Part shown: positions 13,045-62,477 of the stretch, piece by piece
Numbering within the stretch: position 1 is the first letter of the stretch
Layout: each line of letters opens with the position of its first letter
NCBI GenBank assembly: GCA_041497895.1
Contig: JBGQHJ010000004.1
Coordinates: 298-64,297, forward strand
From: Candidatus Methylomirabilia bacterium
GTDB taxonomy: Bacteria; Methylomirabilota; Methylomirabilia; Rokubacteriales; CSP1-6
DNA length: 64,000 nt
Direction: 5' to 3'
Made by a program: the position numbers and the translations under genes
Notes under the pieces: model-generated
Database searches by the model: none
The model's input: the letters and a program-made list of their open reading frames with translations, nothing else
What the model was told of the DNA's origin: nothing

Positions 13045-13917
13045 CTACTCGTCGCGGGGGTCTTCCCGGATGAAGCGACCGGTCTGGAGGTCGCGCAGGG
13101 CCTCCTCGATCTCGGCGCGGGTGTTCATGACGAACGGCCCGTGACGAGCGATCGGCTCGCCGAGCGGGCGCGCCGCCGCGAGGAGGAAGCGCCCGCCCCC
13201 GGGCGCGCCGGCGGCCTCCACGAGATCGCCGTCGCCGAAGACCACCAGCGCCGGCGCGCGCGCCGCGGTCCGCTGCGGGCCGAAGCGCACCTCGCCCTGG
13301 TCCACGTACGCGAAGGCGGTGTGCCCGCGCGGCACCGCCTCGCGGAACGCGGCGCCGTCGGGCAGCGTCACGTCGAGGAACTTCGGCGCCACCGCCAGAC
13401 CGTCGACGGGTCCGGTGAGCCGCCCGCCCGCCGCGTCGCCCGCGACGACGCGTGCCCGCGCGCCGCCGTCGAGCGGGGTCTCGGGCAGATGGCTCGCGGT
13501 CAGGTCACGGTACTTCGGCCGCGTCATCTTCTCGCGCGCGGGCAGGTTGAGCCAGAGCTGCAGCCCGCCGATCCCCTCTGGGCGCACCTGCGGCATCTCC
13601 TCGTGGAGGATGCCGCTGCCGGAGGTCATCCACTGGATGTCGCCGGGCCCGATGCTCCCGTGGTGGCCGAGCGAGTCGCAGTGCTGCACCTCCCCGGTGC
13701 GGACGAACGTCACCGTCTCGATCCCGCGGTGGGGATGGTAGGGAAAGCCGGCCTCGTAGTCCTCGGGGCGGACCGACTCGAAGTGGTCGAGGAGCAGGAA
13801 CGGGTCGAGATGGTCGAGACGCCGCGTGCCGATGCTGCGCCGGAGATGCACCCCGGCGCCTTCCACCACCGGCTCCGGCTTGACGACGTGGGCGACCGGG
13901 CGCGAGGTCTCGCTCAT
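13045..13917 (-). CDS. Pirin family protein
   Basis: 290 aa with the bicupin metal motif FPYHPHRGIETVTFV...WMTSGSGILHEE. Confidence 0.9.
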   Translation of the reverse strand: MSETSRPVAHVVKPEPVVEGAGVHLRRSIGTRRLDHLDPFLLLDHFESVRPEDYEAGFPYHPHRGIETVTFVRTGEVQHCDSLGHHGSIGPGDIQWMTSGSGILHEEMPQVRPEGIGGLQLWLNLPAREKMTRPKYRDLTASHLPETPLDGGARARVVAGDAAGGRLTGPVDGLAVAPKFLDVTLPDGAAFREAVPRGHTAFAYVDQGEVRFGPQRTAARAPALVVFGDGDLVEAAGAPGGGRFLLAAARPLGEPIARHGPFVMNTRAEIEEALRDLQTGRFIREDPRDE

Positions 13918-13926
13918 CGGGAGCCC

Positions 13927-14394
13927 TCAGGCGCGCTCGAGGACGACGACCGGGATCTCCCGCATGGTCCGCGCCTGATACTCGTCGTACGGCGGCCAGA
14001 TCGCGGCCATCGTCTTCCACAGCGCCGGCCGCTCGGCCGGAGTGGCGGTGCGGGCGCGCGCCTTGAACCGGTCCGCCATCACCTGCACCTGCACCTCCGG
14101 CTGCGCGACGAGATTGCCGTACCACGCCGGATGCGCCGGGGCACCGCCGCGGGAGGCCACCACCAGGTAGCGCTCGCCGTCGCGGCCGTAGATGAGCGGA
14201 GTCGTGCGCGACTGGCCGGAGCGCCGGCCGGTCGTGGTCAGCAGGAGGGTCGTCACGCCCTCCCAGACGTGACCGTCCTGGCCGCCGGTCGCGAGGTAGC
14301 GCCGGGCATGCTCTTGCTGCCAGCCGGGCGGCCGGCTCGACGGAGCGGGGCGGGGCGTGGACATGGGTGATACCTCCCGGCGCCAGTCTGCCAC
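13927..14394 (-). CDS. Deazaflavin (F420)-dependent oxidoreductase-like protein, DUF385/nitroreductase family
   Basis: LLLTTTGRRSGQSRTTPLIYGRDGERYLVVASRGGAPAHPAWYGNL is typical of the DUF385/Ddn family. The start may instead be ATG 14364. Confidence 0.8.
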   Translation of the reverse strand: MADWRREVSPMSTPRPAPSSRPPGWQQEHARRYLATGGQDGHVWEGVTTLLLTTTGRRSGQSRTTPLIYGRDGERYLVVASRGGAPAHPAWYGNLVAQPEVQVQVMADRFKARARTATPAERPALWKTMAAIWPPYDEYQARTMREIPVVVLERA

Positions 14395-19360: not shown

Positions 19361-19408
19361 GGTGGTCTTCCTCCCTCCTCGAGCGTCACGTGCCCGCCCT
19401 CGAAGATT

Positions 19409-19424
19409 TGCAACGCGAGTGCCA
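19409..19424 (-). promoter_or_regulatory. Sigma-54 promoter (-24/-12), perfect consensus, upstream of the hsp20-USP-CBS operon
   Basis: The minus strand reads TGGCAC-tcgcg-TTGCA. Predicted +1 is ~19398, 38 nt before the hsp20 ATG at 19360, with a GGAGG-rich leader. Confidence 0.75.
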
Positions 19425-19475
19425 CGAGAGACCCCCGTCGATTCGGGCAGTTACGGCCGGCGGCGGCGCGACCGC

Positions 19476-19493
19476 CGAGGCGGCCCCGCCTCG
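19476..19493. promoter_or_regulatory. Inverted repeat CGAGGCGG-cc-CCGCCTCG; candidate enhancer (UAS) for the hsp20 sigma-54 promoter
   Basis: 8-bp arms, 52-69 nt upstream of the -24 element. The arms resemble the TGAGGCGG/CCGCCTCA arms at 27557-27587 and 61149-61166. Confidence 0.3.
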
Positions 19494-19581
19494 CTGTGGC
19501 GACGGCGCCCCAGGACCTCTTGAAGCCACCCGGCCCTTGGCCCACAATGCAGGCGTTCATGATCCCGCGCGCCGAGGCCAC

Positions 19582-21747
<2,166 letters not shown>

Positions 21748-25964: not shown

Positions 25965-25980
25965 TGCAACGTGAGTGCCA
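25965..25980 (-). promoter_or_regulatory. Sigma-54 promoter, perfect consensus, upstream of the dksA-like / cytochrome c / pfkA operon
   Basis: The minus strand reads TGGCAC-tcacg-TTGCA. Predicted +1 is ~25954, 29 nt before ATG 25925. Confidence 0.75.
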
Positions 25981-26118
25981 TGCGGTAAGGCTGAAGAATC
26001 AGGACGTTGGCAGGGCCGACGCACACCTGCGTGGGGAGGGCGTGCCTCAGTCGGGGCCGGGCGGCCCCGAACCGGCGGGCCGCCGCTCGGGTCACGCCAC
26101 CAGGCCGTCACTCGCCCA

Positions 26119-27459: not shown

Positions 27460-27475
27460 TGCATTCCGAGTGCCA
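27460..27475 (-). promoter_or_regulatory. Sigma-54 promoter upstream of the repeat-protein / DUF2267 / CBS operon
   Basis: The minus strand reads TGGCAC-tcgga-ATGCA. Predicted +1 is ~27449, 25 nt before ATG 27424. Confidence 0.65.
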
Positions 27476-27556
27476 CGCCACTCGGGTCGGCGGGTGCGAG
27501 AAAACGGGACGTTGGGCGGAGCCCGCGCGGCTCGGCTGGGGCGGCCCGCTCCGGAG

Positions 27557-27587
27557 TGAGGCGGCGATGCCCCGCCGCCCCGCCTCA
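27557..27587. promoter_or_regulatory. Inverted repeat TGAGGCGG-N15-CCGCCTCA; either the rtcB terminator hairpin or a UAS for the 27460 sigma-54 promoter
   Basis: 8-bp arms. The right arm overlaps the rtcB stop (27585-27587). It lies 82-112 nt upstream of the -24 element. The same 8-mers form the palindrome at 61149-61166. Confidence 0.35.
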
Positions 27588-34787: not shown

Positions 34788-34803
34788 TGCAACCGGGGTG
34801 CCA
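34788..34803 (-). promoter_or_regulatory. Sigma-54 promoter, perfect consensus, upstream of the DUF2892 / RND efflux / DUF302 / archease / rtcB operon
   Basis: The minus strand reads TGGCAC-cccgg-TTGCA. Predicted +1 is ~34777, 48 nt before ATG 34729. Confidence 0.75.
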
Positions 34804-34914
34804 CTGCTCTTCTGCCGTGGAATCCGAGACTTGCGGCGGCGAGCGGCGGCCCGGGCTGGGGAGCGCGCGCCTCAGCCGGGACCGCGGCGCCCCGGGCGCA
34901 CGCAGGCTACCGGC

Positions 34915-37440
<2,526 letters not shown>

Positions 37441-39177
37441 CTAGTCGTCGCCCCCGTAGCGCACCGTGATCAGCGCGTCGATCGCCTCGCGCAGATCCGG
37501 CAGCTCGCCGCGCCGCCAGCGCGTCTCGGCCTTGCCGAGCTGTCGCGCCAGCTCGCTGTCGGCGAATACGTCGCGCACCCAGCGCGAGAAGTCGCCGCGC
37601 TCGGCGTGGTACGCGAGCAGCTCTTCCGGCGTGATGGCCACCACGCGGCGAAAGGCCTGCAGGCTGTTGGCCGAACCGAGCACCCGGCCGCCGGCCCCCC
37701 GGAACAGGAACTCGCGGCCCGGGGGCACGTGCGAATCCACGTACTTGGTCAGGTGGCGCACGTGGACCGTCTGGCGCGGCGCGGCCACGAAGGTCACCGC
37801 GGTCGCCCGGCCGCCGGGGTCGCGCTGGACGATGAGGAACTGCCCGCGTGGCAGCCGCGAGAGCGCGGCCGACACCGCCTCGCTCCCGTCGATGGCGGGT
37901 AGGGTGGAATGGAGAAAGGCGAGCTCCTCGGGCACCGTGGTCCGCGCGAGGACGAATACGTCCACCGCCCGGATGACGGCCGCGCGCACCCACCGCGGCC
38001 GGTAGGTCACGAAGCAGAAGCCGCGGTCCTCGAGACCGAGCGCGTCGCTCGCGATGCCGCCGTCGTGCACCAGGTAGTGAGCCTCGTCGACCAGCACCCA
38101 GTGCGGACGCCCGACGCGCCGCCGGATCTCGCGGATGCGCCGCAGGGCCCGTTCGATCAGGAGGACCTTCTCGGCGTGGGACAGCGTGGAGAGGTCGAGG
38201 ACCGCCGAGGCCGTGGGGACGTGCTGGAGATGATCCAGCACCCGATCCACGTCCGCCGCCTCGGACACTTCGGCCCACGCGACGCCCGGCAGGCGCGAGA
38301 GCACACGGTAGTCCCCCTCCGGATCGATCACGCAGACCGCGTAGCGCGCAGCGACCAGCCGCTCGACGAGGGCGCCGGCGAGCCAGGACTTGCCGGAGTG
38401 CGGATCGCCGTGGATCAGCACGTTGATCCGGCGGGCCGGGATGGTGATCGGCTCGCTGGTGGTCGCGCCCCAGCCGAGCGAGATCCGGTGGCGTGGTGAC
38501 TGCTGCACCGCGAGCTGGTCCTCGAGCACCGGCCCGGCGATGGCGGCCCCGACGTCGGCGCCCGCGCCGCCCGGCAAGACCCAGTCCACGCGGTCGCGGA
38601 CGACCGCGATGCTGTTGCCCGGGCAGGCGCTGAAGCCGCACGCGTCGAAGAGGGCGAGGTCGTTCTCGGCGTCGCCCAGGGCCAGCACGTCGTGCGGCGA
38701 GAGCTCGAGAAATCGCAGCACCTGCTGGACCCCGGAGCCCTTGGACACGCCGGAGGGCAGCAGCATGAGGGCGGCGCGGTTCGGGATCAGGTCCCGGGTC
38801 ACGTCGGCCGCGCGCAGCGCCTCGCGCACCCCCGCCTCGTCGCCACGGCCGGTGCCGACGATGACCCGGCCCACCTGGTAGTAGATGCCCCGCCGCTCGA
38901 GCTCTCCGAGCAGCCGGCCGGGCACCGGGGGTCCCTGGTCGCGGATCATCGCCGAGCCGGGATAGTAGATCACCGCGCCGTTCTCGGCCACCACGCCGTC
39001 GAAGAGCTCCAGGCAGTCGCACACGCGCGTGAGCTCGAAGAAGGTGCGCCCGGTCACGAGCATCAGCCGGAGGCCCGCCTTCTTCGCCTGCTCGAGCGCG
39101 GCGCGCACCGACGGACCGATCCGGTCATCGACTGCGAGCGTGCCGTCGAAATCGCAAGCGAGCGCCTTGAAGAACAC
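37441..39177 (-). CDS. Fusion protein: N-terminal HAD-IIB (Cof-like) phosphatase plus C-terminal HerA/FtsK-like P-loop ATPase domain
   Basis: 578 aa. HAD motif I ACDFDGTLA and motif IV GDAENDL. Then Walker A GDPHSGKSW and Walker B VLVDEAHYL. GTG start. The stop abuts the mgtA start. Confidence 0.8.
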   Translation of the reverse strand: MFFKALACDFDGTLAVDDRIGPSVRAALEQAKKAGLRLMLVTGRTFFELTRVCDCLELFDGVVAENGAVIYYPGSAMIRDQGPPVPGRLLGELERRGIYYQVGRVIVGTGRGDEAGVREALRAADVTRDLIPNRAALMLLPSGVSKGSGVQQVLRFLELSPHDVLALGDAENDLALFDACGFSACPGNSIAVVRDRVDWVLPGGAGADVGAAIAGPVLEDQLAVQQSPRHRISLGWGATTSEPITIPARRINVLIHGDPHSGKSWLAGALVERLVAARYAVCVIDPEGDYRVLSRLPGVAWAEVSEAADVDRVLDHLQHVPTASAVLDLSTLSHAEKVLLIERALRRIREIRRRVGRPHWVLVDEAHYLVHDGGIASDALGLEDRGFCFVTYRPRWVRAAVIRAVDVFVLARTTVPEELAFLHSTLPAIDGSEAVSAALSRLPRGQFLIVQRDPGGRATAVTFVAAPRQTVHVRHLTKYVDSHVPPGREFLFRGAGGRVLGSANSLQAFRRVVAITPEELLAYHAERGDFSRWVRDVFADSELARQLGKAETRWRRGELPDLREAIDALITVRYGGDD

Positions 39178-39191
39178 GTGAGCGGTACCGG

Positions 39192-39207
39192 AGCAATCCT
39201 AGTGCCA
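39192..39207 (-). promoter_or_regulatory. Sigma-54 promoter upstream of the HAD-ATPase / mgtA operon
   Basis: The minus strand reads TGGCAC-tagga-TTGCT. Predicted +1 is ~39181, only ~4 nt before GTG 39177, so the transcript is near-leaderless. Confidence 0.7.
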
Positions 39208-39351
39208 CGCCGGCCGGTTCGGAAGACCCCGTTGGATGGCGATCATGGCCCGACCGGAGCGGGACACCCCTGCCCCACTGTCGTGGGAATTCCGTGCGGG
39301 CGGACCGGCTGGGCGAGGAGCGGATCGTCGATTCGGCGCGCGCTTGGGGCC

Positions 39352-39367
39352 GGGCACCACGCTTGCA
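39352..39367 (+). promoter_or_regulatory. Sigma-54 promoter upstream of the pal-like / gdh / DUF3300 / DUF2950 / OPT operon
   Basis: GGGCAC-cacgc-TTGCA. Predicted +1 is ~39378, 3 nt before ATG 39381. No Shine-Dalgarno is visible. Confidence 0.65.
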
Positions 39368-39380
39368 CCATGACAGGGGC

Positions 39381-39914
39381 ATGAGCACGATACCCGTCCT
39401 TGCGCTGCTGGTTCTCCTGGTCTCCGCCGCCGGCTGCGGGACGGCGAAGAGCAGTCAGCCGGACCTCGCGGCATCCCCGCGCGAGCCCTCGCCCGCGGTG
39501 GCCGCCACGGAGCCTCCAGATGAAGGCGCCCTGACCCCCACGGGCTCACCGCCGCCGCCCCAGGAGTTCATCCCGGCCGCCCGGCTGGCCGACATCTACT
39601 TCGCCTTCGACGCCCACGAGATCCGTGCCGAGGACACGCGCGTGCTCGACGAGAACGCGGCGTGGCTGCGGGCGACCCCGAACGCGCTCGTCCTGATCGA
39701 GGGGCACACCGACGAGCGCGGGACCAGCGAGTACAACCTGGGGCTCGGGGATCTGCGCGCCCGCGCCGCCATGACCTACCTGATGGCCCACGGCGTGCCG
39801 GCGGTCCGCATGGTCGCGATCTCCTACGGCAAGGAGCGGCCGATCTGCACCGAGCACGACGAGAGCTGCTGGGCGCGGAATCGCCGGGCCCACTTCCTGG
39901 TCAAGCTGCTCTGA
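39381..39914 (+). CDS. OmpA-family peptidoglycan-associated lipoprotein (Pal-like)
   Basis: Lipobox LVSAAGC. OmpA_C domain with GHTDERGTSEYNLGLGDLRA. Confidence 0.85.
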   Translation: MSTIPVLALLVLLVSAAGCGTAKSSQPDLAASPREPSPAVAATEPPDEGALTPTGSPPPPQEFIPAARLADIYFAFDAHEIRAEDTRVLDENAAWLRATPNALVLIEGHTDERGTSEYNLGLGDLRARAAMTYLMAHGVPAVRMVAISYGKERPICTEHDESCWARNRRAHFLVKLL

Positions 39915-50118: not shown

Positions 50119-50556
50119 TCACCGGCAGACCAGCACCGGGATCTTGCTGTGGGTGAGCACCTTCATCGTCTCGCTGCCGAGCACCAGGGCCGACATGCCC
50201 TTCCGCCCGTGGGAGGCCATGAAGATCAGGTCGCAGCCCCCCTTGCGGGCGGTGTCGATGATCGCCTCGTAGGGGTGGGGCGCCCGGACGTGGAGCGTCT
50301 CGCAGGGCACGCCCGCGACGCTCGCCTCGGCCTTGGCCATCCCGAGACACTTCTCGGCCAGCGCCTCGCAGTGCTGCTCGTACTGCCCGGGGGTGTCGCT
50401 CACCATGACCGGATCGAGCGCGAAGGCGTGGAACGGGATCGAGACGGTCATCGCGGTCACCCGCGCCTGCATGCTCTTGGCGAAGAGAATGCCTTGCCGG
50501 ATCGCCAGCTCGGACAGCGTGGACCCATCGGTGGGGATCAGGATGTGCTTGTACAT
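50119..50556 (-). CDS. Universal stress protein
   Basis: 145 aa. MYKHILIPTDGS..., ASHGRKGMSALVLGSET. Confidence 0.9.
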   Translation of the reverse strand: MYKHILIPTDGSTLSELAIRQGILFAKSMQARVTAMTVSIPFHAFALDPVMVSDTPGQYEQHCEALAEKCLGMAKAEASVAGVPCETLHVRAPHPYEAIIDTARKGGCDLIFMASHGRKGMSALVLGSETMKVLTHSKIPVLVCR

Positions 50557-51209
50557 GTGGAGCCTCCTTCGGGCCAGCCCTCGGCCCCGATCAGTGGGAC
50601 GAATGCCACGTACTCCAGGTTCTCGTGCTCGTACTCGTGTGCGTCGGTCCGGGTCACCCGGACGAGCCGCTGGCTGCGCGGGTCCGTGCCCACCGGCATG
50701 ATCAGCCGGCCGCCGACCGCGAGCTGGTGCAGGAGAGCCTTGGGCACGCGCGGCCCACCCGCGGTCACCAGGATCGCTTCATAGGGGGCGTGCTCGGGCC
50801 AGCCCAGGCTGCCGTCGCCCTCGAGCACGTGGACGTTGTCGTATCCGAGCTCCGCCAGCCGCCGGCGCGCCGTCTCGGCCAGCTCCCCGACCCGCTCGAC
50901 CGTGTACACCTCGCCCGCGATCCGGGCCAGGACCGCCGCGCCATAGCCGGAGCCGGTCCCGATCTCGAGCACCCGCTCGCCGGGCTTGATCCCGACCGCC
51001 GCGGTCATGACCGCCACGATGTACGGCTGCGAGATGGTCTGGCCCTTGCCGATCGGCAGCGGGCCGTCGTCATAGGCGAACCGCTCCATCGAGGCGGGCA
51101 CGAAGCGCTCCCGCGGGACGGTCCGCATCGCGTCGAGCACGAGCGGATCGGTGATGCCCCGGGCCTCGATCTGGGTCGCGACCATGCGCTCCCGGTCCTC
51201 GCTCAGCAT
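50538..51209 (-). CDS. pcm: Protein-L-isoaspartate O-methyltransferase
   Basis: 223 aa. QTISQPYIVA and the SAM motif VLEIGTGSGY. Confidence 0.9.
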   Translation of the reverse strand: MLSEDRERMVATQIEARGITDPLVLDAMRTVPRERFVPASMERFAYDDGPLPIGKGQTISQPYIVAVMTAAVGIKPGERVLEIGTGSGYGAAVLARIAGEVYTVERVGELAETARRRLAELGYDNVHVLEGDGSLGWPEHAPYEAILVTAGGPRVPKALLHQLAVGGRLIMPVGTDPRSQRLVRVTRTDAHEYEHENLEYVAFVPLIGAEGWPEGGSTCTSTS

Positions 51210-51241: not shown

Positions 51242-51682
51242 CTACTCGGCCTTGATCGGGATCATCGTGCCCTTGGCCGCCGGCGTCTTGGGCAGGGTCA
51301 CGGTCAGCAGGCCATTCTTGAAGCTCGCGGTCACCCGGCTCGCGTCCACCGCCACCGGCAGGCGCACGCTGCGGGTGAACGACCCGTAGGTCCGCTCCAC
51401 GCGGTGATAGCGCTCGTCCTTCTCTTCCTTCTCCTGCTTCTTCTCCCCCTTGATGGTCAGGAGGTTCTCCTGGAGCGAGATCTGGATGTCCTTCTCTTCC
51501 ATGCCGGGCGCCTCGATCTTCGCGACCAGGCTGTCCTTCGTCTCCGAGATGTCCATGCTCGGAGCCCAGTCACCGAGCGCCGGGAAGTCCTCCCACTTGC
51601 TCTCGAAGACCCGGTCGAACGCCCGATCCATCTCCTGCTTCAGACTCGCCATCCCCGTCCACGGCATCAACATGCGCATCAT
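51242..51682 (-). CDS. Hsp20/alpha-crystallin family small heat-shock protein; paralog of 18929..19360
   Basis: MMRMLMPWTG... parallels MMRGLMPWAG in the paralog. GAGGAGG precedes ATG 51682. Confidence 0.9.
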   Translation of the reverse strand: MMRMLMPWTGMASLKQEMDRAFDRVFESKWEDFPALGDWAPSMDISETKDSLVAKIEAPGMEEKDIQISLQENLLTIKGEKKQEKEEKDERYHRVERTYGSFTRSVRLPVAVDASRVTASFKNGLLTVTLPKTPAAKGTMIPIKAE

Positions 51683-51735
51683 CGATCCTCCTCTTGGCGA
51701 GAACGTTCCTCTCAACCTACCCGCCGGGCTCCAGG

Positions 51736-51751
51736 TGCATCGTGAGTGCCA
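51736..51751 (-). promoter_or_regulatory. Sigma-54 promoter upstream of the hsp20 / pcm / USP / ABC / ppsA / cytochrome c operon
   Basis: The minus strand reads TGGCAC-tcacg-ATGCA. Predicted +1 is ~51725, 43 nt before ATG 51682. Confidence 0.6.
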
Positions 51752-51881
51752 GGTAGAAGCCGCGCCAATTCAACCGCTTGGCGCGGGCGCGCGGACGAGT
51801 TGCCGAGGCACGCGCGCCCCGGTGAGGCCCGCCCGCCCCAGCGCGTGACGCCGGAAGGCCCGATCTAGCGAGCATTTCCAT

Positions 51882-51897
51882 CGGCATCTGCCTTGCA
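51882..51897 (+). promoter_or_regulatory. Sigma-54-like promoter upstream of the CBS / ACP-FAAL-acyltransferase / HdeD operon
   Basis: CGGCAT-ctgcc-TTGCA. Predicted +1 is ~51908, 31 nt before ATG 51939. Divergent from the 51736 promoter. Confidence 0.5.
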
Positions 51898-51938: not shown

Positions 51939-52361
51939 ATGCTCGGGAAGATCTGCACCAAGCCAGTGGTGACCGCGTCGGCCCAGATGACGGTGGATCA
52001 AGCCGCGCGAGCGATGCGATCCAAGAACGTCGGATCCCTCGTGGTCGTCAACGCCGGACGGCCGGTCGGGATGCTGACCGACCGGGACATCGTCGTCGAG
52101 GTCGTGGCCCGCGGGATGGATCCCGAGGAGGTCCGGGTCGGCGACGTCATGGTCAAGAAGCCGGTGACGATCCGGCAGGATCTCGGGATCTTCGACGCGG
52201 CCAGGACTTTCGCCAAGACCGGCGTCCGCCGGCTCCCCGTCGTCACCGGCAGTGGCGCGCTGGTCGGCGTCATCACGATGGACGACGTGCTCATGCTCCT
52301 CGGCAACGAGATGGGCCACATGGCCGGGGCCCTCTCGGCCGGGCTTCGCCGGGTCTCGTAG
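51939..52361 (+). CDS. CBS-pair domain protein
   Basis: 140 aa starting at ATG 51939, preceded by CAGGAGGA. Two CBS repeats. Confidence 0.85.
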   Translation: MLGKICTKPVVTASAQMTVDQAARAMRSKNVGSLVVVNAGRPVGMLTDRDIVVEVVARGMDPEEVRVGDVMVKKPVTIRQDLGIFDAARTFAKTGVRRLPVVTGSGALVGVITMDDVLMLLGNEMGHMAGALSAGLRRVS

Positions 52362-56441: not shown

Positions 56442-56584
56442 AGGGGGAAGGCCAGGAAAATCGAGGTCCTGGGAATCTCGCCGCCCCGCCCGAGACCGAG
56501 CGGGCGAGGCGCCACCGCCTCTCGTGGGTCGGCCGCGCCACGCCTGGCCCTTCCGGGCCGGGCATGGCAAGCTGCCCCAGCCCC

Positions 56585-57337: not shown

Positions 57338-57802
57338 CTACCACATGTAGCCGCCGACGAACTCGGCGACCCGGCCCTCCATCATGAGGGCCTTCAGCAC
57401 GTCCTGCTCGGTGAGCAGGCCGACGAGCCGGCCGCGCTCGATGACCGGCAGGCTGCCCACGCGGCTCTCGAACATGATGAGGGCCGCGGAGAGCACCGGG
57501 GTCTCCGGAGCCGTCGTGACGACGGCCCACGTCATCACGTCCCTCACCCGCAGGTTCTCCAGGGTCTCGCCCAGCTGCCGCGCGAGCCGTCGGGCCCGGA
57601 CCGAGAGGTATTCCTGCACCGCGGGCGCGAAGGCGGCGTGCCGCAGGTCGCGGTCGGTGACGATTCCCATCAGCGCTCCCTTTTCATCCACGACCGGCAG
57701 GTGACGAACGTGCTTCGTCCGCATGACGTCCAGCGCCGTGCCCACGGCCGCTTCCGGCTCGATCGTCAGCGGGTCCTTGGCCATCACGTCCCTGACCTTC
57801 AT
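57338..57802 (-). CDS. CBS-pair domain protein
   Basis: 154 aa with two CBS repeats (MKVRDVMAKDPLTI...; VRDVMTWAVVTT...). Confidence 0.85.
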   Translation of the reverse strand: MKVRDVMAKDPLTIEPEAAVGTALDVMRTKHVRHLPVVDEKGALMGIVTDRDLRHAAFAPAVQEYLSVRARRLARQLGETLENLRVRDVMTWAVVTTAPETPVLSAALIMFESRVGSLPVIERGRLVGLLTEQDVLKALMMEGRVAEFVGGYMW

Positions 57803-57892
57803 CTTGTGCTCCCTTCGCCGGACCGAACGCCTGGCACTGCGGGTCCGTCGGGCTCGGGTCATGGCTCGATCGCTCCTCCGCTTCCCTGAGAG

Positions 57893-57908
57893 TGCATCCG
57901 GCCTGCCA
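57893..57908 (-). promoter_or_regulatory. Sigma-54-like promoter upstream of the CBS / small basic protein genes
   Basis: The minus strand reads TGGCAG-gccgg-ATGCA. Predicted +1 is ~57882. Shares two upstream blocks with the 27460 promoter at identical offsets. Confidence 0.5.
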
Positions 57909-58011
57909 ACGCCCCACGTCTGCGACCGCTTCCGAACCGGGATGTTAGCCGCGATCTCCCGGGGCCCGCTGGGTCTGCGGCTCCCCGGCTGAGGCGTTCC
58001 GGCCCCAGGAG

Positions 58012-59397
58012 TCATGCGCTCGGTGGATTCGCGATGAGGCCTTCGCGCATGAGGAGCGCGACCGCTTCGCGCGCCTCCCGCATGGTCCTGGCCGCGTCGG
58101 TGTAGAGCCGCTCCCAGTCCTTCGATAAGACCGCGACACCGTCCTCCTGGGCCGCGACTCCCGCCGCGGCGGCCACCCGGGGAAAGACGTCCCACTCGTC
58201 CATGCGCGGCAGGATGTCCTCGTCGTGGATCGACCGTGACTCGGCGAAGCGCGCCAGCTCCCGGGCGACGCTCCGCGCCATGCCGTCCGTGATGGCCCGG
58301 GTGCGAACGTCGAGAGCGCCCCGGAACAGGCCCGGGAAGACCAGCGAGTTGTTGAGCTGGTTGGGAAAATCGCCCCGCCCCGTCGCGATCACGCGGGCGC
58401 CCGCCGCCCTGGCCTCCCACGGCCAGATCTCCGGAACCGGATTCGCGCAGGCGAACACGATGGCGTCGCGGGCCATGCCCGCCACCCACTCGGGCTTGAT
58501 GATCCCGGGCCCGGAGGCCGAGAACGCCGCGCAGACGTCCGCGCCGCGGAGGGCGTCGGCGATGCCGCCGACCAGGCCGTCGGCGTTGCTCTCCCGGCAC
58601 ACGCGCCACTTGTCCGGGAAGCGCGCCTGCTCGGCCTCGATATCGTGCCGCCCCCGATGCAGGATGCCCGCTCGGTCGCACGCCACGATGGCGCCCGGCT
58701 CGACGCCGCTGGTGGTGAGCAGGCGATATCCCGCGACGTTCGCCGCCCCGATTCCGACCATCACGATCCGCACCCGGCCCAGGTCCTTGCCGACAACCTT
58801 GAGGGCGTTGAGCAGTCCGGCCAGGAGGCAGGTGGCCGTCCCCTGCTGATCGTCGTGCCAGACGGGAATGCGGAGGTCCCGCCGGAGCGCGTCGAGCACG
58901 CGGAAGCACTTGGGCTGGGCGATGTCCTCCAGGTTGATCGCCCCGAAGGCGGGCTCGATCAGCTTGACCGCGCGCGTCAGCTCGTCGGGATCCTTGGTCG
59001 CCAGGCAGATCGGCACCGCGTCGACGCCGCCGAGGTACTTGAAGAGCATCGCCTTGCCTTCCATGACCGGCAGGCTGGCCTCGGGGCCGATGTCGCCGAG
59101 GCCGAGCACTCGCGTGCCGTCGGTCACGATCGCGATCGAGTTGCCCTTGTTGGTGTGGGCGTACACCTGCTCTGGATCGGCCTGGATGGCCCGGCACGGG
59201 GCGGCCACACCGGGCGAGTACCAGATCGCCAGGTCCGACAAGCCACGGATCGCGCACTTCGGCATCACCTGCAGCTTGCCGCGGTAGAAGGGATGCAGGC
59301 GCAGGGCCTCTTCCGCCGGCTTCGCCGCCCGCGCGAGCAGCTCCTCCATCCCGGAAGGCGGCGGCGTCTTCATGATCACACGCTCCATCGCCTGCAA
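58012..59397 (-). CDS. NAD(P)-dependent malic enzyme (short form, no PTA domain)
   Basis: YSPGVAAPC, VTDGTRVLGLGDIGP and GIGAANVA. The true start is probably GTG 59379 or ATG 59373, because the sigma-54 promoter overlaps the 59397 ATG. Confidence 0.9.
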   Translation of the reverse strand: MQAMERVIMKTPPPSGMEELLARAAKPAEEALRLHPFYRGKLQVMPKCAIRGLSDLAIWYSPGVAAPCRAIQADPEQVYAHTNKGNSIAIVTDGTRVLGLGDIGPEASLPVMEGKAMLFKYLGGVDAVPICLATKDPDELTRAVKLIEPAFGAINLEDIAQPKCFRVLDALRRDLRIPVWHDDQQGTATCLLAGLLNALKVVGKDLGRVRIVMVGIGAANVAGYRLLTTSGVEPGAIVACDRAGILHRGRHDIEAEQARFPDKWRVCRESNADGLVGGIADALRGADVCAAFSASGPGIIKPEWVAGMARDAIVFACANPVPEIWPWEARAAGARVIATGRGDFPNQLNNSLVFPGLFRGALDVRTRAITDGMARSVARELARFAESRSIHDEDILPRMDEWDVFPRVAAAAGVAAQEDGVAVLSKDWERLYTDAARTMREAREAVALLMREGLIANPPSA

Positions 59398-59408
59398 CTC
59401 GACTGCCA
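59393..59408 (-). promoter_or_regulatory. Sigma-54 promoter upstream of the malic enzyme gene
   Basis: The minus strand reads TGGCAG-tcgag-TTGCA. Predicted +1 is ~59382, 3 nt before GTG 59379. Confidence 0.6.
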
Positions 59409-59460
59409 GGCGAGGCGCCCACGATCACGGACACTTCTGATGCGAGCATGGAGGCACGCG

Positions 59461-59476
59461 CGCCCCAGCTGGGGCG
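59461..59476. promoter_or_regulatory. 16-bp perfect palindrome cgCCCCAGCTGGGGcg; candidate bEBP enhancer between divergent sigma-54 promoters
   Basis: Centrally placed between the -24 elements at 59408 (-) and 59553 (+). Homologous in sequence and position to the palindrome at 61149-61166. Confidence 0.4.
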
Positions 59477-59552
59477 GTGACTCCCCCGGTCGAGCTGAGC
59501 GTCCCGGTCGCCGGAGGATCGCCTGGTCTGCCCTCGTCAGCACTTGAGCGCC

Positions 59553-59568
59553 AGGCACGGGGTTTGCT
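59553..59568 (+). promoter_or_regulatory. Sigma-54 promoter upstream of the small 2-TM protein gene
   Basis: AGGCAC-ggggt-TTGCT, preceded by the conserved box ACTTGAGCG (59542-59550). Predicted +1 is ~59579. ATG at 59590. Confidence 0.65.
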
Positions 59569-59589
59569 CTCCCTCTGGAGGACGAGATC

Positions 59590-59901
59590 ATGAGCTATCA
59601 ATTCACCCGTATCTGGAGCCGGGCCTCGGTCGTCGTCGGGACCGGGGTGATCGTGCTGACCGTGCTCGTCGCGTCGTGGCTCGGCTTCTCGAGCGAGCCC
59701 GAGTTGGAGCGCTTCGCCTCGGCGAGCCGCATCCTGACCGGCCTGATCGTGAGCCTCGCGGGCCTGGTCGTCGGGGGCACCATGATCGTCGCGGGGCAGC
59801 TCGTCTCCGTGCTCCTCGACCAGCGCGAGCTCCTGGTCGAGATCCATCAGGCGCTCACCGCGCAGGCCAACCCGGCCTCGGAGGTGGCCCGACGGCCCTG
59901 A
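59590..59901 (+). CDS. Small membrane protein (103 aa, two TM helices plus an amphipathic C-terminal helix); unknown family
   Basis: MSYQFTRIWSRASVVVGTGVIVLTVLVASWLGFSS...GGTMIVAGQLVSVLLDQRELL. Clear paralog at 61286..61594. Confidence 0.65.
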   Translation: MSYQFTRIWSRASVVVGTGVIVLTVLVASWLGFSSEPELERFASASRILTGLIVSLAGLVVGGTMIVAGQLVSVLLDQRELLVEIHQALTAQANPASEVARRP

Positions 59902-59924: not shown

Positions 59925-60350
59925 CTATCCTGGGCCGGTACTTTCTGGGGATCCCACGACGGCCCGAATGACGTCGGTGGCCGTGAGGATCCCGACCACC
60001 CGGCCGGCGTCGGCCACCGGCAGGGCGCCGAGCTTGTGCTCGTGCATGATGCGGGCGGCGTCGCGAATGTCCGCGTCGGGTCCCACGGTTATCACGCCCC
60101 AGGTCATGATCTCGTTGGTCCTCAGACGGCCGAGGGTCCCGACCAACCGGTCCGGCTCCTCTTGCAGGCACCATCCGAGGATCACCAGCTGCAGATCATG
60201 GTCGGTGACCATCCCGATGAGCCGGCGGTCGCTATCGAGCACCGGGAGATGGCGCACCTGCCGGGAGCGGAGGATGCTCCACGCATCCGCGATCGTCGCG
60301 TCGTGGCCGATCGTGATCACCGGACCGGTCATCAGGTCTGCGACCCGCAT
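59925..60350 (-). CDS. CBS-pair domain protein
   Basis: 141 aa from ATG 60350, preceded by AAGAGGAG. Two CBS repeats. Confidence 0.85.
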   Translation of the reverse strand: MRVADLMTGPVITIGHDATIADAWSILRSRQVRHLPVLDSDRRLIGMVTDHDLQLVILGWCLQEEPDRLVGTLGRLRTNEIMTWGVITVGPDADIRDAARIMHEHKLGALPVADAGRVVGILTATDVIRAVVGSPESTGPG

Positions 60351-60400
60351 CGCTCCTCTTTCACGAGTCTCGCTCCGCACGCTCCTGGATCGCGCGGCTC

Positions 60401-60442: not shown

Positions 60443-61003
60443 TCAGGCCTCGGCGCCCCAGCGACCCGGGAACGAGATCACGCCCTCGTCGAGCATCCGG
60501 ACCACCGTCTTCAGGACATCGCCGGCCGCGAGCATGCCGATCACCCGATCGTGCTCCACGACCGGCACGGCCCCGATCTTGTTGGCGTGGATGAGCCGCG
60601 CGACCTCACGCAGCAAGGCATCCGGCTTCGTGGTGATCACGCCCCAGGTCATCACGTCCTTGACGGTCTGGGTCCGGAGCGCCCGATCCAGATCCTCGAA
60701 CGCGTCGCGGAGGGCGGGGCTGAGAACCGTCTGGCGCAGGTCGCGGTCGCTTACGATGCCGACGAGATGCCCGGTGTCGTCCAATACCGGCGCGTGGCGG
60801 ATATTCCGGGTCCGCATGGCCTTGACTGCGGCACCGACGAGCATCCCCTCACGGAACGTCACGGCCGGACGGGTCATGACGTCGCGCACCCGCACGACCC
60901 CCTCCGGCCAGCCGGCCTCTTCCAGCTCGCGCCCGGCCCGCCCCGGGCGTTTCGGATTCCTGGTTCGCACGGCTCGGGTGATCGCTCTCTTCGGATGCTT
61001 CAT
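60443..61003 (-). CDS. CBS-pair domain protein with a basic N-terminal extension
   Basis: 186 aa from ATG 61003, preceded by GGAAGGAGGA. N-terminal region KHPKRAITRAVRTRNPKRPGRAGR, then two CBS repeats. Confidence 0.8.
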   Translation of the reverse strand: MKHPKRAITRAVRTRNPKRPGRAGRELEEAGWPEGVVRVRDVMTRPAVTFREGMLVGAAVKAMRTRNIRHAPVLDDTGHLVGIVSDRDLRQTVLSPALRDAFEDLDRALRTQTVKDVMTWGVITTKPDALLREVARLIHANKIGAVPVVEHDRVIGMLAAGDVLKTVVRMLDEGVISFPGRWGAEA

Positions 61004-61045: not shown

Positions 61046-61061
61046 TGCATCTGCCCTGCCA
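61046..61061 (-). promoter_or_regulatory. Sigma-54-like promoter upstream of the tandem CBS genes
   Basis: The minus strand reads TGGCAG-ggcag-ATGCA. Predicted +1 is ~61035, 32 nt before ATG 61003. Confidence 0.5.
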
Positions 61062-61087: not shown

Positions 61088-61148
61088 CTCGATCCAGGAC
61101 ATTAGCCTCCATCCACCGTTGCGCTCCGGCTCGGTACCCGGGGCATCG

Positions 61149-61166
61149 CCGCCTCAGCTGAGGCGG
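61149..61166. promoter_or_regulatory. 18-bp perfect palindrome CCGCCTCAGCTGAGGCGG; candidate bEBP enhancer between divergent sigma-54 promoters
   Basis: Its CYCAGCTGRG core ends 79 nt upstream of the plus-strand -24 element, the same distance as the 59461 palindrome. The sequence between the conserved blocks has diverged. Confidence 0.4.
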
Positions 61167-61241
61167 TAATCTCCCGCACCGCCGAGGGCTCGATGCCCCG
61201 CTCGAGGTCAGCCCGCGTGCCTTTGCAAGGACTTGAGCGGA

Positions 61242-61257
61242 GGGCACAAAGCTTGCT
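61242..61257 (+). promoter_or_regulatory. Sigma-54 promoter upstream of the small 2-TM protein / lipoprotein / MlaC-like operon
   Basis: GGGCAC-aaagc-TTGCT, preceded by ACTTGAGCG (61231-61239). Predicted +1 is ~61268. GGAGGAAG is followed by ATG 61286. Confidence 0.65.
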
Positions 61258-61285
61258 CGCTCATACGGCGGTGGAGGAAGAGGCG

Positions 61286-61594
61286 ATGCGCTATCGATTC
61301 ACTCGCAGTTGGGGTCAGGCGTCGGTGATGGTCGGCGGGGGCGTGTTCGTAGTCGCCCTGATCCTCGCGTGGTGGCTCGGCTTCTCGAGCGACGACGGGT
61401 TCGAGCGCTTCTCCCCGGCGGTGCGCATCCTGGCCGCCCTGGTCGTGAGCTTGGCTGGGCTCCTGGTGGGGGGGACCATGATCGTGGCGGGACAGCTCGT
61501 CTCCGTGCTGCTCGACCAGCGCGCCCTGCTGGCGCAGATCCGCGAGGTGCTCACGGAGAAGGCCGGCGCGGGCGAGAAGGCCCTCGGTCGTTGA
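61286..61594 (+). CDS. Small membrane protein (102 aa); paralog of 59590..59901
   Basis: MRYRFTRSWGQASVMVGGGVFVVALILAWWLGFSS...GGTMIVAGQLVSVLLDQRALL. Confidence 0.65.
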   Translation: MRYRFTRSWGQASVMVGGGVFVVALILAWWLGFSSDDGFERFSPAVRILAALVVSLAGLLVGGTMIVAGQLVSVLLDQRALLAQIREVLTEKAGAGEKALGR

Positions 61595-61608: not shown

Positions 61609-61869
61609 ATGCGCTACACGAGATCGACCGCAGCAGCGCTGATGCTCGCCGCCGCGGCAATATTCGTGGCGGGGTGCGCGACGGGTCGCATCGCCTGGGA
61701 GAAGGCCGGCATCACCCAGGCGGACCGGGAGCGGGACGAGAACGCGTGTCTCCGGTCCGCCATCACCGCGGATAGCGGTGGCGGGCAGTTGCTCGCCCCC
61801 TACTGCATCGACCGTGAGATCTACACTCGATGCATGGAAGGCCGCGGCTACACCGTTCATTCCCAGTGA
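61609..61869 (+). CDS. Small lipoprotein (86 aa), unknown function
   Basis: GGAGGGAG precedes ATG 61609. Signal peptide with lipobox FVAGC. Three further Cys residues. Confidence 0.6.
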   Translation: MRYTRSTAAALMLAAAAIFVAGCATGRIAWEKAGITQADRERDENACLRSAITADSGGGQLLAPYCIDREIYTRCMEGRGYTVHSQ

Positions 61870-62477
61870 AGCGATTCCTCACCCTGGGGGTGATCGGCCT
61901 GGCTTGCACGCTCGGCTGGGCGCCGGGGGCCGGCGGGGCCGGGTCGGGTCCGACCGAGCAGCTCAAGGGCGCCATCGACCGTGTGCTCCAGGTCCTGGAG
62001 GATCCGGCTCTCAAGGGTGAAGCGCGGGCCGCGGAGCGCCGTCGCGCGCTCAGACAGATCGCCGACGAGATCTTCGACTTCGACGAGACCGCGCGTCGGG
62101 CCATGGCGCAGCACTGGCGGACGCTCACCGAGGCCCAGCGCAAGGAGTTCGTCGAGCTCTTCAGCGATCTGCTGGAGCGCACCTACACGTCGAAGCTCGA
62201 GCTCTACGGCGGGGAGCGGATCCAGTACTCCGCCGCGCGGATCGAGGGCGACTTCGCCACCGTCTCCACCCGGCTCATCACGGAGAAGGGCACCGAGGTG
62301 CCGATCGACTACCGGATGCTCAGGCAGGGAGAGCGATGGCGGATCTACGACGTCAGCATCGAGGGAGTCAGTCTCGTCGCCAACTTTCGTGGGCAATTCA
62401 ACAACGTCATCCGCACCTCCTCCTACGACGAGCTCCTCCGGAGGCTGCGGAGCCGGGGCGCGGAGGTCCGGCCGTAG
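61866..62477 (+). CDS. MlaC/Ttg2D-family phospholipid-binding periplasmic protein
   Basis: GTG 61866 overlaps the upstream stop (GTGA). FDFDETARRAMAQHWRTLTEAQRKEFVELF and WRIYDVSIEGVSLVANFRGQF are typical of the Tgt2/MlaC family. Confidence 0.85.
   Translation: MKRFLTLGVIGLACTLGWAPGAGGAGSGPTEQLKGAIDRVLQVLEDPALKGEARAAERRRALRQIADEIFDFDETARRAMAQHWRTLTEAQRKEFVELFSDLLERTYTSKLELYGGERIQYSAARIEGDFATVSTRLITEKGTEVPIDYRMLRQGERWRIYDVSIEGVSLVANFRGQFNNVIRTSSYDELLRRLRSRGAEVRP

Follow-up and report, generated by a model that had tools for sequence, protein, structure and literature searches.

Four intergenic regions in a 64,000-nucleotide stretch of DNA from a Candidatus Methylomirabilia bacterium (contig JBGQHJ010000004.1, positions 298 to 64,297; hereafter the window) each carry two predicted sigma-54 promoters that point away from one another. 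This arrangement raises the question of whether a single activator site placed between the promoters serves both. Our analysis indicates that these regions, designated R1 to R4, are probably bidirectional sigma-54 control regions in which two outward promoters flank one enhancer, and that they are nodes of a single stress/dormancy-type regulon. The predicted regulon takes in genes for Usp, Hsp20, CBS-pair proteins, PCMT, P-type ATPase, RND efflux, malic enzyme, PFK, GDH and others. This reading rests on computational observation of the boxes and the central dyads, of how they are conserved and of how they occur together. The eight boxes and the genes that they precede are as follows.

39193-39207, minus strand: R1(-) sigma-54 box TGGCACTAGGATTGC, before genes for a HAD + P-loop ATPase (37441-39177) and a P-type ATPase (34915-37440); GTG start 15 nt past the C of the -12 element (-12 C).
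39352-39366, plus strand: R1(+) sigma-54 box GGGCACCACGCTTGC, before the operon OmpA/Pal-GDH-DUF3300-DUF2950-OPT; ATG at 39381, 14 nt past the -12 C.
51737-51751, minus strand: R2(-) sigma-54 box TGGCACTCACGATGC, before genes for Hsp20 (51242-51715), PCMT (50538-51209) and Usp (50119-50556).
51882-51896, plus strand: R2(+) sigma-54 box CGGCATCTGCCTTGC, before CBS-FAAL/acyltransferase-DUF308; Shine-Dalgarno motif and ATG at 51939.
59394-59408, minus strand: R3(-) sigma-54 box TGGCAGTCGAGTTGC, before the malic enzyme gene (58012-59373); ATG 20 nt past the -12 C.
59553-59567, plus strand: R3(+) sigma-54 box AGGCACGGGGTTTGC, before the gene for a 103-aa protein with two transmembrane segments (two-TM protein; 59590-59901).
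61047-61061, minus strand: R4(-) sigma-54 box TGGCAGGGCAGATGC, before CBS-CBS genes (60443-61003 and 59925-60380); Shine-Dalgarno motif GGAGG before the ATG at 61003.
61242-61256, plus strand: R4(+) sigma-54 box GGGCACAAAGCTTGC, before the gene for a two-TM paralogue (61286-61594), a small open reading frame (ORF) and MlaC (61830-62477).

All eight predicted -24/-12 boxes retain intact GG and GC doublets 10 nt apart (TGGCAC-N5-TTGC) and depart from consensus by 0-2 mismatches. Start codons, revised from Shine-Dalgarno motifs and orthologue lengths, lie 14-55 nt downstream of the -12 C; the revised ATGs are those of the OmpA lipoprotein (39381), two CBS genes (51939 and 61003) and the second two-TM gene (61286). 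The initial annotation had recognized all eight boxes, with minus-strand positions that proved one base off, and its spacings of 144, 130, 144 and 180 nt between the paired boxes of R1, R2, R3 and R4, respectively, were reproduced exactly. The names that it gave to the flanking genes were upheld by Pfam (HAD + P-loop ATPase, P-type ATPase, OmpA/Pal, GDH, DUF3300, DUF2950 and OPT; HSP20, PCMT, Usp, CBS, FAAL-acyltransferase, malic enzyme and MlaC).

The window has a G+C content of 72%, and chance expectation was modeled with 300 dinucleotide-preserving shuffles. Boxes with no more than one mismatch and intact GG/GC doublets numbered 10, against 2.2 +/- 1.6 in shuffled sequence. Outward-facing pairs with a spacer of 100-220 nt numbered five, against a shuffled mean of 0.39 and a maximum of 3, and the same scan of the window recovered no pair in the opposite order. 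The fifth outward pair, 56286(-)/56414(+), consists of two 2-mismatch boxes within coding DNA and is probably due to chance.

Syntenic loci from related genomes (numbered with the prefix L) were fetched and scanned for boxes, and orthologous spacers were aligned (alignments A1-A5). The R1 pair recurs in 11 further sequences, the R2 pair in at least four lineages (L006, L010, L012/13 and L023), the R3 pair in at least four (L001, L002-5, L010/11 and L012/13, and partly L014-16) and the R4 pair in three (L001, L002/3/5 and L006/7/9). Across the 12 sequences of the R1 alignment (A5), mean column identity was 0.90 for the minus-strand box, 0.89 for a central 35-bp block and 0.88 for the plus-strand box, with values of 0.58 and 0.61 in the stretches between. 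The R2-R4 alignments display the same footprint, in which nothing stands out except the two boxes and a central block of some 35 bp. On the minus strand, the R1(-) box has no consensus mismatch in 11 of 12 orthologous sequences, the R3(-) box is kept in L001, L002-5, L012/13 and L010, and R4(-) orthologues read TGGCAG-N5-TTGC. Plus-strand boxes are conserved like their minus-strand partners and keep constant distances to start codons and central block: R2(+) orthologues read CGGCA(T/C)-N5-(T/A)TGCAC (identity 0.90), and column identity is 0.90 for R3(+) and 0.98 for R4(+). Moreover, the pair persists while the neighboring gene changes, the R3(-) gene being malic enzyme in the window, Usp in L012, CBS in L010 and PGK in L014. 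Because boxes are kept in orthologous spacers with diverged flanks and sit correctly upstream of start codons, in silico evidence supports the prediction that each pair comprises two genuine sigma-54 promoters.

The HAD + P-loop ATPase of R1 has relatives in a Candidatus Methylomirabilota metagenome-assembled genome (MAG) and one other contig (90-91% identity), in several Methylomirabilota or Rokubacteria MAGs (73-76%), and in a Rokuibacteriota MAG and one unclassified MAG (62-63%; L025 and L026). These matches place the window in the Rokubacteria/Methylomirabilota lineage. Homologues of the two-TM protein were found in metagenomes and MAGs only. Four loci with 73-91% identity (L018, L022, L023 and L024) are deposited as Deferrimicrobiaceae, Nitrosotalea, Limnocylindria and Verrucomicrobiia, labels that probably reflect contamination during MAG binning.

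Upstream regions were all lined up in promoter orientation to define the motif of the central block. In R2-R4 the block consists of two adjacent 16-bp dyads, GRGGC-N6-GCCYC, whose starts are 19-20 bp apart, or approximately two helical turns. Each spacer contains one conserved dyad-symmetric block, a tandem in R2-R4 and a variant in R1, with no strand assigned.

39259-39293: R1 central block GCGGGACACCCCTGCCCCACTGTCGTGGGAATTCC, with one canonical dyad GGGACACCCCTGCCCC at 39261-39276 and a conserved non-canonical half.
51805-51839: R2 predicted enhancer GAGGCACGCGCGCCCC-GGT-GAGGCCCGCCCGCCCC, 0 + 0 mismatches to GRGGC-N6-GCCYC.
59451-59486: R3 predicted enhancer GAGGCACGCGCGCCCC-AGCT-GGGGCGGTGACTCCCC, 0 + 1 mismatches.
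61140-61175: R4 predicted enhancer GGGGCATCGCCGCCTC-AGCT-GAGGCGGTAATCTCCC, identity 0.92 in A4.

The L025 orthologue of the R1 block has both dyads in canonical form. In R2, identity of the dyad block was 0.83 versus 0.74 and 0.69 in adjoining spacer (A2), and within the R3 block GCCCCAnCTGGGGC is invariant in 6 sequences. A possible third dyad occurs in R4 at 61184-61199. A symmetric change between R3 and R4 had suggested that GCCCCAGCTGGGGC in R3 forms a hairpin or single protein site; this was rejected when comparison of all promoters revealed it as the junction of two dyads.

In the window the same tandem also precedes at least five one-directional sigma-54 promoters, at 71.5-82 bp, with distance measured from tandem centre to the GG of the -24 element.

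19410-19511, minus strand: Hsp20-Usp module; box TGGCACTCGCGTTGC at 19410-19424, tandem at 19477-19511, 71.5 bp.
25966-26068, minus strand: cytochrome c-PFK module; box TGGCACTCACGTTGC at 25966-25980, tandem at 26033-26068, 72 bp.
27461-27573, minus strand: module of an ORF of unknown function and DUF2267; box TGGCACTCGGAATGC at 27461-27475, variant tandem at 27537-27573 (GGGGCATCGCCGCCTC, GGAGCGGGCCGCCCC).
34789-34893, minus strand: MFP-AcrB efflux module, possibly with DUF302-archease-RtcB; box TGGCACCCCGGTTGC at 34789-34803, tandem at 34858-34893, 74 bp.
57894-58006, minus strand: module of a CBS-pair gene (57338-57862); box TGGCAGGCCGGATGC at 57894-57908, tandem at 57971-58006, 82 bp.

The variant tandem of the 27461 module has more mismatches. 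Its orthologue in L024 passes the tandem search, at 82 bp, and the 82-bp distance of the 57894 module is also found in L001, L002, L006 and L012. With up to 3 mismatches allowed in total, the window holds 8 tandems versus 2.25 +/- 1.5 in shuffles. Seven of the 8 (those of R2, R3 and R4 and of the one-directional promoters 19410, 25966, 34789 and 57894) lie 60-100 bp upstream of a -24/-12 box. Because such intervals cover only about 1.9% of the window, we calculate a binomial P of about 6e-12. When 27 related loci are counted along with the window, an outward-pointing box lies 40-130 bp from 66 of 85 tandems. Since it recurs upstream of the five one-directional promoters, the tandem dyad is the predicted common enhancer of one regulon.

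Distances from enhancer to promoter fit a shared role. In every pair the central block lies 61-98 bp from each -24 element, or approximately -86 to -122 relative to the expected start sites, which is the normal range for enhancers. The layout also matches the general description of NtrC-type sites as paired dyads about 80-150 bp upstream of the start (PMC11841059). The proposal of the initial annotation that these spacers suit one centrally bound enhancer-binding protein is therefore supported in silico, with one conserved block per spacer at these distances. Distances fall into discrete classes, with none at intermediate values. A class of about 62 bp comprises R2(+) (61.5 bp, and 61.5-62.5 bp in five lineages) and R3(-) (62 bp). 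One of about 71-75 bp comprises the three one-directional promoters with perfect boxes (19410, 25966 and 34789, at 71.5-74 bp), R2(-) (72.5 bp) and both sides of R1 (about 74 bp). The third, of about 82-87 bp, comprises R3(+) and R4(+) (both 86 bp; 85-86 bp for R4(+) in relatives), 57894 and an HU-family gene of relatives. A period of 9.5-12 bp was detected by Monte Carlo analysis of 14 promoter families (p ~0.004), and we consider the discrete classes consistent with dependence on the helical face, with no stronger claim. In L006, which lacks the malic enzyme gene and has a spacer of 545 bp, a separate tandem precedes each promoter, at 82 bp for CBS(-) and 83 bp for two-TM(+). Sharing therefore appears to be a compaction of ordinary enhancer-promoter modules rather than an obligatory design.

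Some spacers also hold a candidate site for DNA bending. An A/T-containing box lies 30-44 bp upstream of minus-strand -24 boxes and shifts along with the enhancer. It resembles YAANNNN(T/C)TGATW, best at 25966 and 51737, a loose match in GC-rich DNA. The R2 example is given here.

51765-51781, minus strand: possible IHF-type bending site CCAAGCGGTTGAATTGG, containing CAA-N4-TTGAAT, between the enhancer and the R2(-) box.

The ATTCA...CTTG columns of this R2 site are conserved in A2. In relatives an HU/IHF-family gene (Bac_DNA_binding; L001 16871-17313, L002 ~13661-14106 and L006 16723-17165) has its own TGGCAG-N5-TTGC box and a tandem at 84-85 bp; the window ends before this gene. Because that gene carries both elements in relatives, the regulon may include a possible DNA-bending protein. 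On the plus strand, R3(+) (59451-59901) and R4(+) (61140-61594) are paralogous modules with the same dyad layout, the same 86-bp distance and a conserved ACTTGAG box just upstream of the -24 element, and their two-TM products are 60% identical. ACTTGAG was considered as an IHF site or a -35 element and rejected, being too near the promoter for IHF and having no -10 partner.

Regulators with a Sigma54_activat domain are abundant in Rokubacteria/Methylomirabilota records. Metagenome contigs were scanned for the combination of tandem, spacer and box, which returned 28 loci, and two of these encode an NtrC-type response regulator (REC, Sigma54_activat, HTH_8). In one (L084) the regulator gene stops 8 nt before the dyads, which are followed by an A/T-containing box, a TGGCAC-N5-TTGC sigma-54 box, a Shine-Dalgarno motif and a Usp gene; the elements between the dyads and the Shine-Dalgarno motif of Usp read CCAACATTCCGGATTC, then TGGCACCTCGGTTGC. 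The two motif-adjacent regulators are 69% identical to each other and belong to a family with at least 70% identity across more than 100 clusters named Rokubacteria, NC10 or Methylomirabilota. In three Rokubacteria MAG contigs (L092-L094) the regulator gene overlaps an upstream PAS-HisKA-HATPase kinase gene, and immediately downstream of this kinase/regulator operon come the tandem, a sigma-54 box 74.5 bp from it and a Usp-Usp-Usp-APH-AAA_33-CBS-REC cluster. In L095 and L096 the operon is followed by an opposite-strand gene, variant dyads that the tandem search missed, a sigma-54 box and Usp genes. The regulator is a canonical NtrC-family protein, and among solved structures it comes closest to members of that family such as 4l4u and 1ny5. 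Since its gene adjoins a motif-bearing target in related genomes, we infer that this PAS-kinase-linked NtrC-type protein is the candidate activator of the tandem dyads. Assignment of a regulator by adjacency to a motif-bearing target is standard in comparative genomics and was used in the D. vulgaris regulome study (PMC4641369). Two of the contigs with the kinase/regulator operon, L092 (14031-14134) and L094 (14109-14212), have a second module approximately 4.6 kb further downstream than the first, in which a tandem and a perfect TGGCACGCGGGTTGC are 73.5 bp apart; it follows a stand-alone REC gene and precedes a methyltransferase gene. A literature search for Rokubacteria or Methylomirabilota together with sigma-54 or RpoN found nothing relevant.

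Several observations weigh against bidirectional control from a shared enhancer. All four plus-strand boxes lack the first T of TGGCAC, with G, C or A before GGCAC, and R2(+) has two mismatches and reads GGCAT; plus-strand promoters may be the weaker ones. The second half-element of the R1 block is a misfit to the dyad consensus. Single dyads with no more than one mismatch number 43 in the window and are common by chance at this base composition, so tandems alone are informative. One tandem (56506-56541, 0 + 2 mismatches) lies inside a CarS-like gene with no sigma-54 box in range. The R4(-) distance of 98 bp falls outside the classes, and R4(-) is the sole promoter of variable distance (83-92 bp in relatives). 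The best-fit period is about 12 bp, not 10.5. Resemblance of the A/T-containing box to the IHF consensus WATCAANNNNTTR, read on the other strand as YAANNNNTTGATW, is loose. No activator with GAFTGA and Walker A motifs was found near the island of stress-type genes that holds the pairs, by motif search of the window and 61 loci or by Pfam analysis of the window genes. No rpoN turned up in the window or in close syntenic loci, in a survey that included no search aimed at rpoN. Lastly, the regulator was assigned from its position next to the motif in other genomes. The coding-region tandem at 56506-56541 is itself conserved in L001, L002 and L004, for which coding constraint may account.

Among other explanations, the one that survives best, while still unlikely, accepts both promoters as real and denies that the central block is a shared activator site. 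Each region or direction might have its own paralogous activator, or the block might bind a repressor or nucleoid protein, with enhancers elsewhere. The R1 block is indeed unlike the R2-R4 tandem, and the symmetric difference between R3 and R4 at the dyad junction (GCCCCAGCTGGGGC versus GCCTCAGCTGAGGC) could mark distinct specificities. Furthermore, phyla rich in sigma-54 promoters usually have many activators. Against separate activators, the R/Y variation at the differing position also occurs within single sites. Enhancers elsewhere are harder to accommodate, as the spacers have no other conserved block able to act as one. The same motif class, moreover, stands at canonical distance before one-directional promoters and directly beside the conserved NtrC-type regulator gene.

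It is more doubtful still that each pair has a single functional promoter, the strong minus-strand one (TGGCAC/TGGCAG), with weak or fortuitous plus-strand boxes and plus-strand genes read from another, unrecognized type of promoter. This proposal draws on the plus-strand deviations at the first T, the two mismatches of R2(+) and the fact that the perfect boxes of the window are all on the minus strand. Yet plus-strand boxes, with identities of 0.88-0.98, are on par with minus-strand boxes while adjacent spacers drift, and GGCAC-N5-TTGCA of R1(+) is invariant in all 12 sequences. They also hold a constant relation to start codons, and a fixed distance to the dyads, at the 86 bp shared by R3(+) and R4(+) and in the five lineages of R2(+). 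In L006, where the partner promoter has been lost, the R3(+) box persists with a tandem to itself. A search for a sigma-70 consensus between 51 and 62 kb found none, by a consensus that may not suit the phylum.

Finally, that the GC-rich dyads are structural or repetitive elements (hairpins like repetitive extragenic palindromes, or a small RNA) amassed in intergenic DNA with no regulatory link is very improbable: the dyads are GC-rich palindromes in a 72% G+C genome and single units are frequent by chance, but distances to -24 boxes are quantized, seven of 8 tandems co-localize with a box, the elements lie upstream of both start sites and so would not be transcribed from these promoters, no Rfam match was found in the window, and the arms show no hairpin-type co-variation, GCCCC being a frequent partner of GAGGC, as would suit recognition by a protein better than a hairpin.

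Bidirectional control from one enhancer can be cast as a sequence of steps in which we infer which regulator and signal take part, that bending plays a role and that the two promoters are both active. A PAS-domain histidine kinase would sense the signal, for which the genes of the regulon speculatively point to redox, oxygen or energy state. The kinase would phosphorylate the NtrC-type regulator, which would oligomerize on the tandem dyads, whose centre is at about -86 to -122 relative to either start. The DNA would bend, perhaps through an IHF/HU protein bound to the A/T-containing box, and so bring the regulator to closed sigma-54 holoenzyme on either side, and ATP hydrolysis would open the promoter. 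One bound complex could serve both operons, as the enhancer has dyad symmetry and lies roughly midway between them.

Three of the paired promoters would have exceptionally short leaders. The R1(-) start codon (39175-39207) is GTG or ATG, 13-16 nt after the -12 C and without a Shine-Dalgarno motif, in 12 of 12 genomes. In 10 of 12 genomes an ATG follows the -12 C of R1(+) (39352-39383) by 14-15 nt, and the gap at R3(-) (59371-59408) is 16-20 nt. With start codons so near the -12 C, the predicted sigma-54 transcripts would be leaderless or nearly so. Leaderless transcripts are unusual among sigma-54 promoters.

The four pairs sit in a stress/dormancy-type gene island of approximately 45 kb (15492-62477) with at least 13 sigma-54 boxes. 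The island encodes at least 5 Usp, 2 Hsp20 and 6 CBS-pair proteins, PCMT, RtcB and archease, a P-type ATPase and RND efflux. Its metabolic genes encode PFK, PEP synthase, malic enzyme, GDH and an ADP-forming acyl-CoA synthetase. Between 27585 and 34803 on the minus strand, MFP, AcrB, DUF302, archease and RtcB genes run head-to-tail below the 34789 box, with the sole sizeable gap, of 113 nt, before archease; RtcB may therefore be under sigma-54 control through this promoter. Sigma-54 also controls rtcBA in E. coli, where both operon and activator are different. A gene for a CHASE3-PAS-PAS histidine kinase (19390-21747, plus strand), with no partner regulator nearby, diverges from the Hsp20-Usp promoter. 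Its true start must lie further downstream, because the longest ORF overlaps the box and enhancer at 19410-19511.

Bidirectional sigma-54 control regions are already known. ZraR controls both divergent sigma-54 promoters of zraP and zraSR (PMC4987338). In E. coli K-12 the zraP/zraS boxes, TGGCACGGAAGATGC (minus) and TGGCATGATTTCTGC (plus), are 139 nt apart, with two inverted repeats, GAGTAAAAATGACTC...GAGTCATTTTTACTC, at the centre. The zraP-zraSR region of E. coli and Salmonella (ZraR/HydG) thus shares with the window divergent sigma-54 promoters around central inverted repeats and a comparable spacer (139 versus 130-180 nt). It differs in being a single locus, devoted to zinc or envelope stress, that encodes regulator and kinase in one of the divergent operons, with autoregulation. 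In the window no regulator is encoded at the loci, the motif is GRGGC-N6-GCCYC in two copies, and the layout occurs four times in a predicted regulon of at least 13 promoters. E. coli hycA and hypA also have divergent sigma-54 boxes, TGGCACAAAAAATGC (minus) and TGGCACAATTATTGC (plus), 113 nt apart, such that four E. coli sigma-54 promoters fall in two divergent pairs of this kind. Both operons are FhlA-dependent (table in PMC4987338). Unlike the activator predicted here, FhlA is a one-component, formate-sensing protein with a different site, CATTTCGTACGAAATG.

In Desulfovibrio vulgaris, OrpR (DVU2106) activates both of the divergent sigma-54 operons orp1 and orp2 from palindromes that are separated from the promoters by IHF sites (PMC3897727). 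There the operons have the activator gene between them or alongside, and dependence on IHF was demonstrated by experiment, as opposed to the loose IHF sequence match in the window. A common upstream activator motif has also been predicted for divergent type III secretion system operons of D. vulgaris pDV1 (PMC4641369). The closest functional parallel is the regulon of Myxococcus xanthus NmpR (NmpRSTU), an NtrC-like regulator linked to low oxygen that binds paired dyad sites at several sigma-54 promoters and, as predicted here, has universal stress and CBS-domain targets (PMC11841059). The NmpR site is different (GCGCA-N5-TGCGC, with 14-15 bp between sites), the phylum is different, and bidirectional enhancer use is not described for it. 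In gene content, the island resembles the DosR dormancy regulon of Mycobacterium tuberculosis. That regulon includes multiple Usp, Hsp20/alpha-crystallin, a CBS-pair protein, phosphofructokinase and a P-type ATPase, and its genes are clustered and under two-component control. DosR is a LuxR/NarL-type sigma-70 activator, whereas control in the window is predicted to involve sigma-54 and an AAA+ activator; no homology of regulators is implied.

These precedents remove the ground for the earlier suggestion that bidirectional sigma-54 regions are uncommon and therefore signal a dedicated design, as the same layout is found at zraP/zraS, hycA/hypA, orp1/orp2 and the type III secretion operons. Nor do four pairs in 22 kb call for a special design, as the initial annotation had it: their density reflects a packed sigma-54 island, and sharing is optional, as L006 illustrates. 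New here are the organism, from a phylum that is uncultivated, its enhancer motif, the number and kind of genes in the predicted regulon, the repeated, probably bidirectional use of enhancers and the very short leaders predicted at some promoters. More tentatively, it is possible that uncultivated Rokubacteria/Methylomirabilota have a phylum-wide sigma-54 regulon for dormancy or energy stress, DosR-like in gene content. It would be governed by one PAS-kinase/NtrC-type system acting on tandem GRGGC-N6-GCCYC enhancers, many of them bidirectional and helically phased, with several transcripts essentially leaderless. The enhancer motif, the 13 or more target promoters and the candidate kinase/regulator pair provide a testable regulatory map for a lineage without a cultured representative. 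The predicted gene set points to survival under energy or oxygen limitation in soil. Moreover, repeated bidirectional use of the enhancer at 62, 72 and 84 bp would provide a ready-made set of spacings in which to study how a single AAA+ activator complex is shared between two closed complexes.

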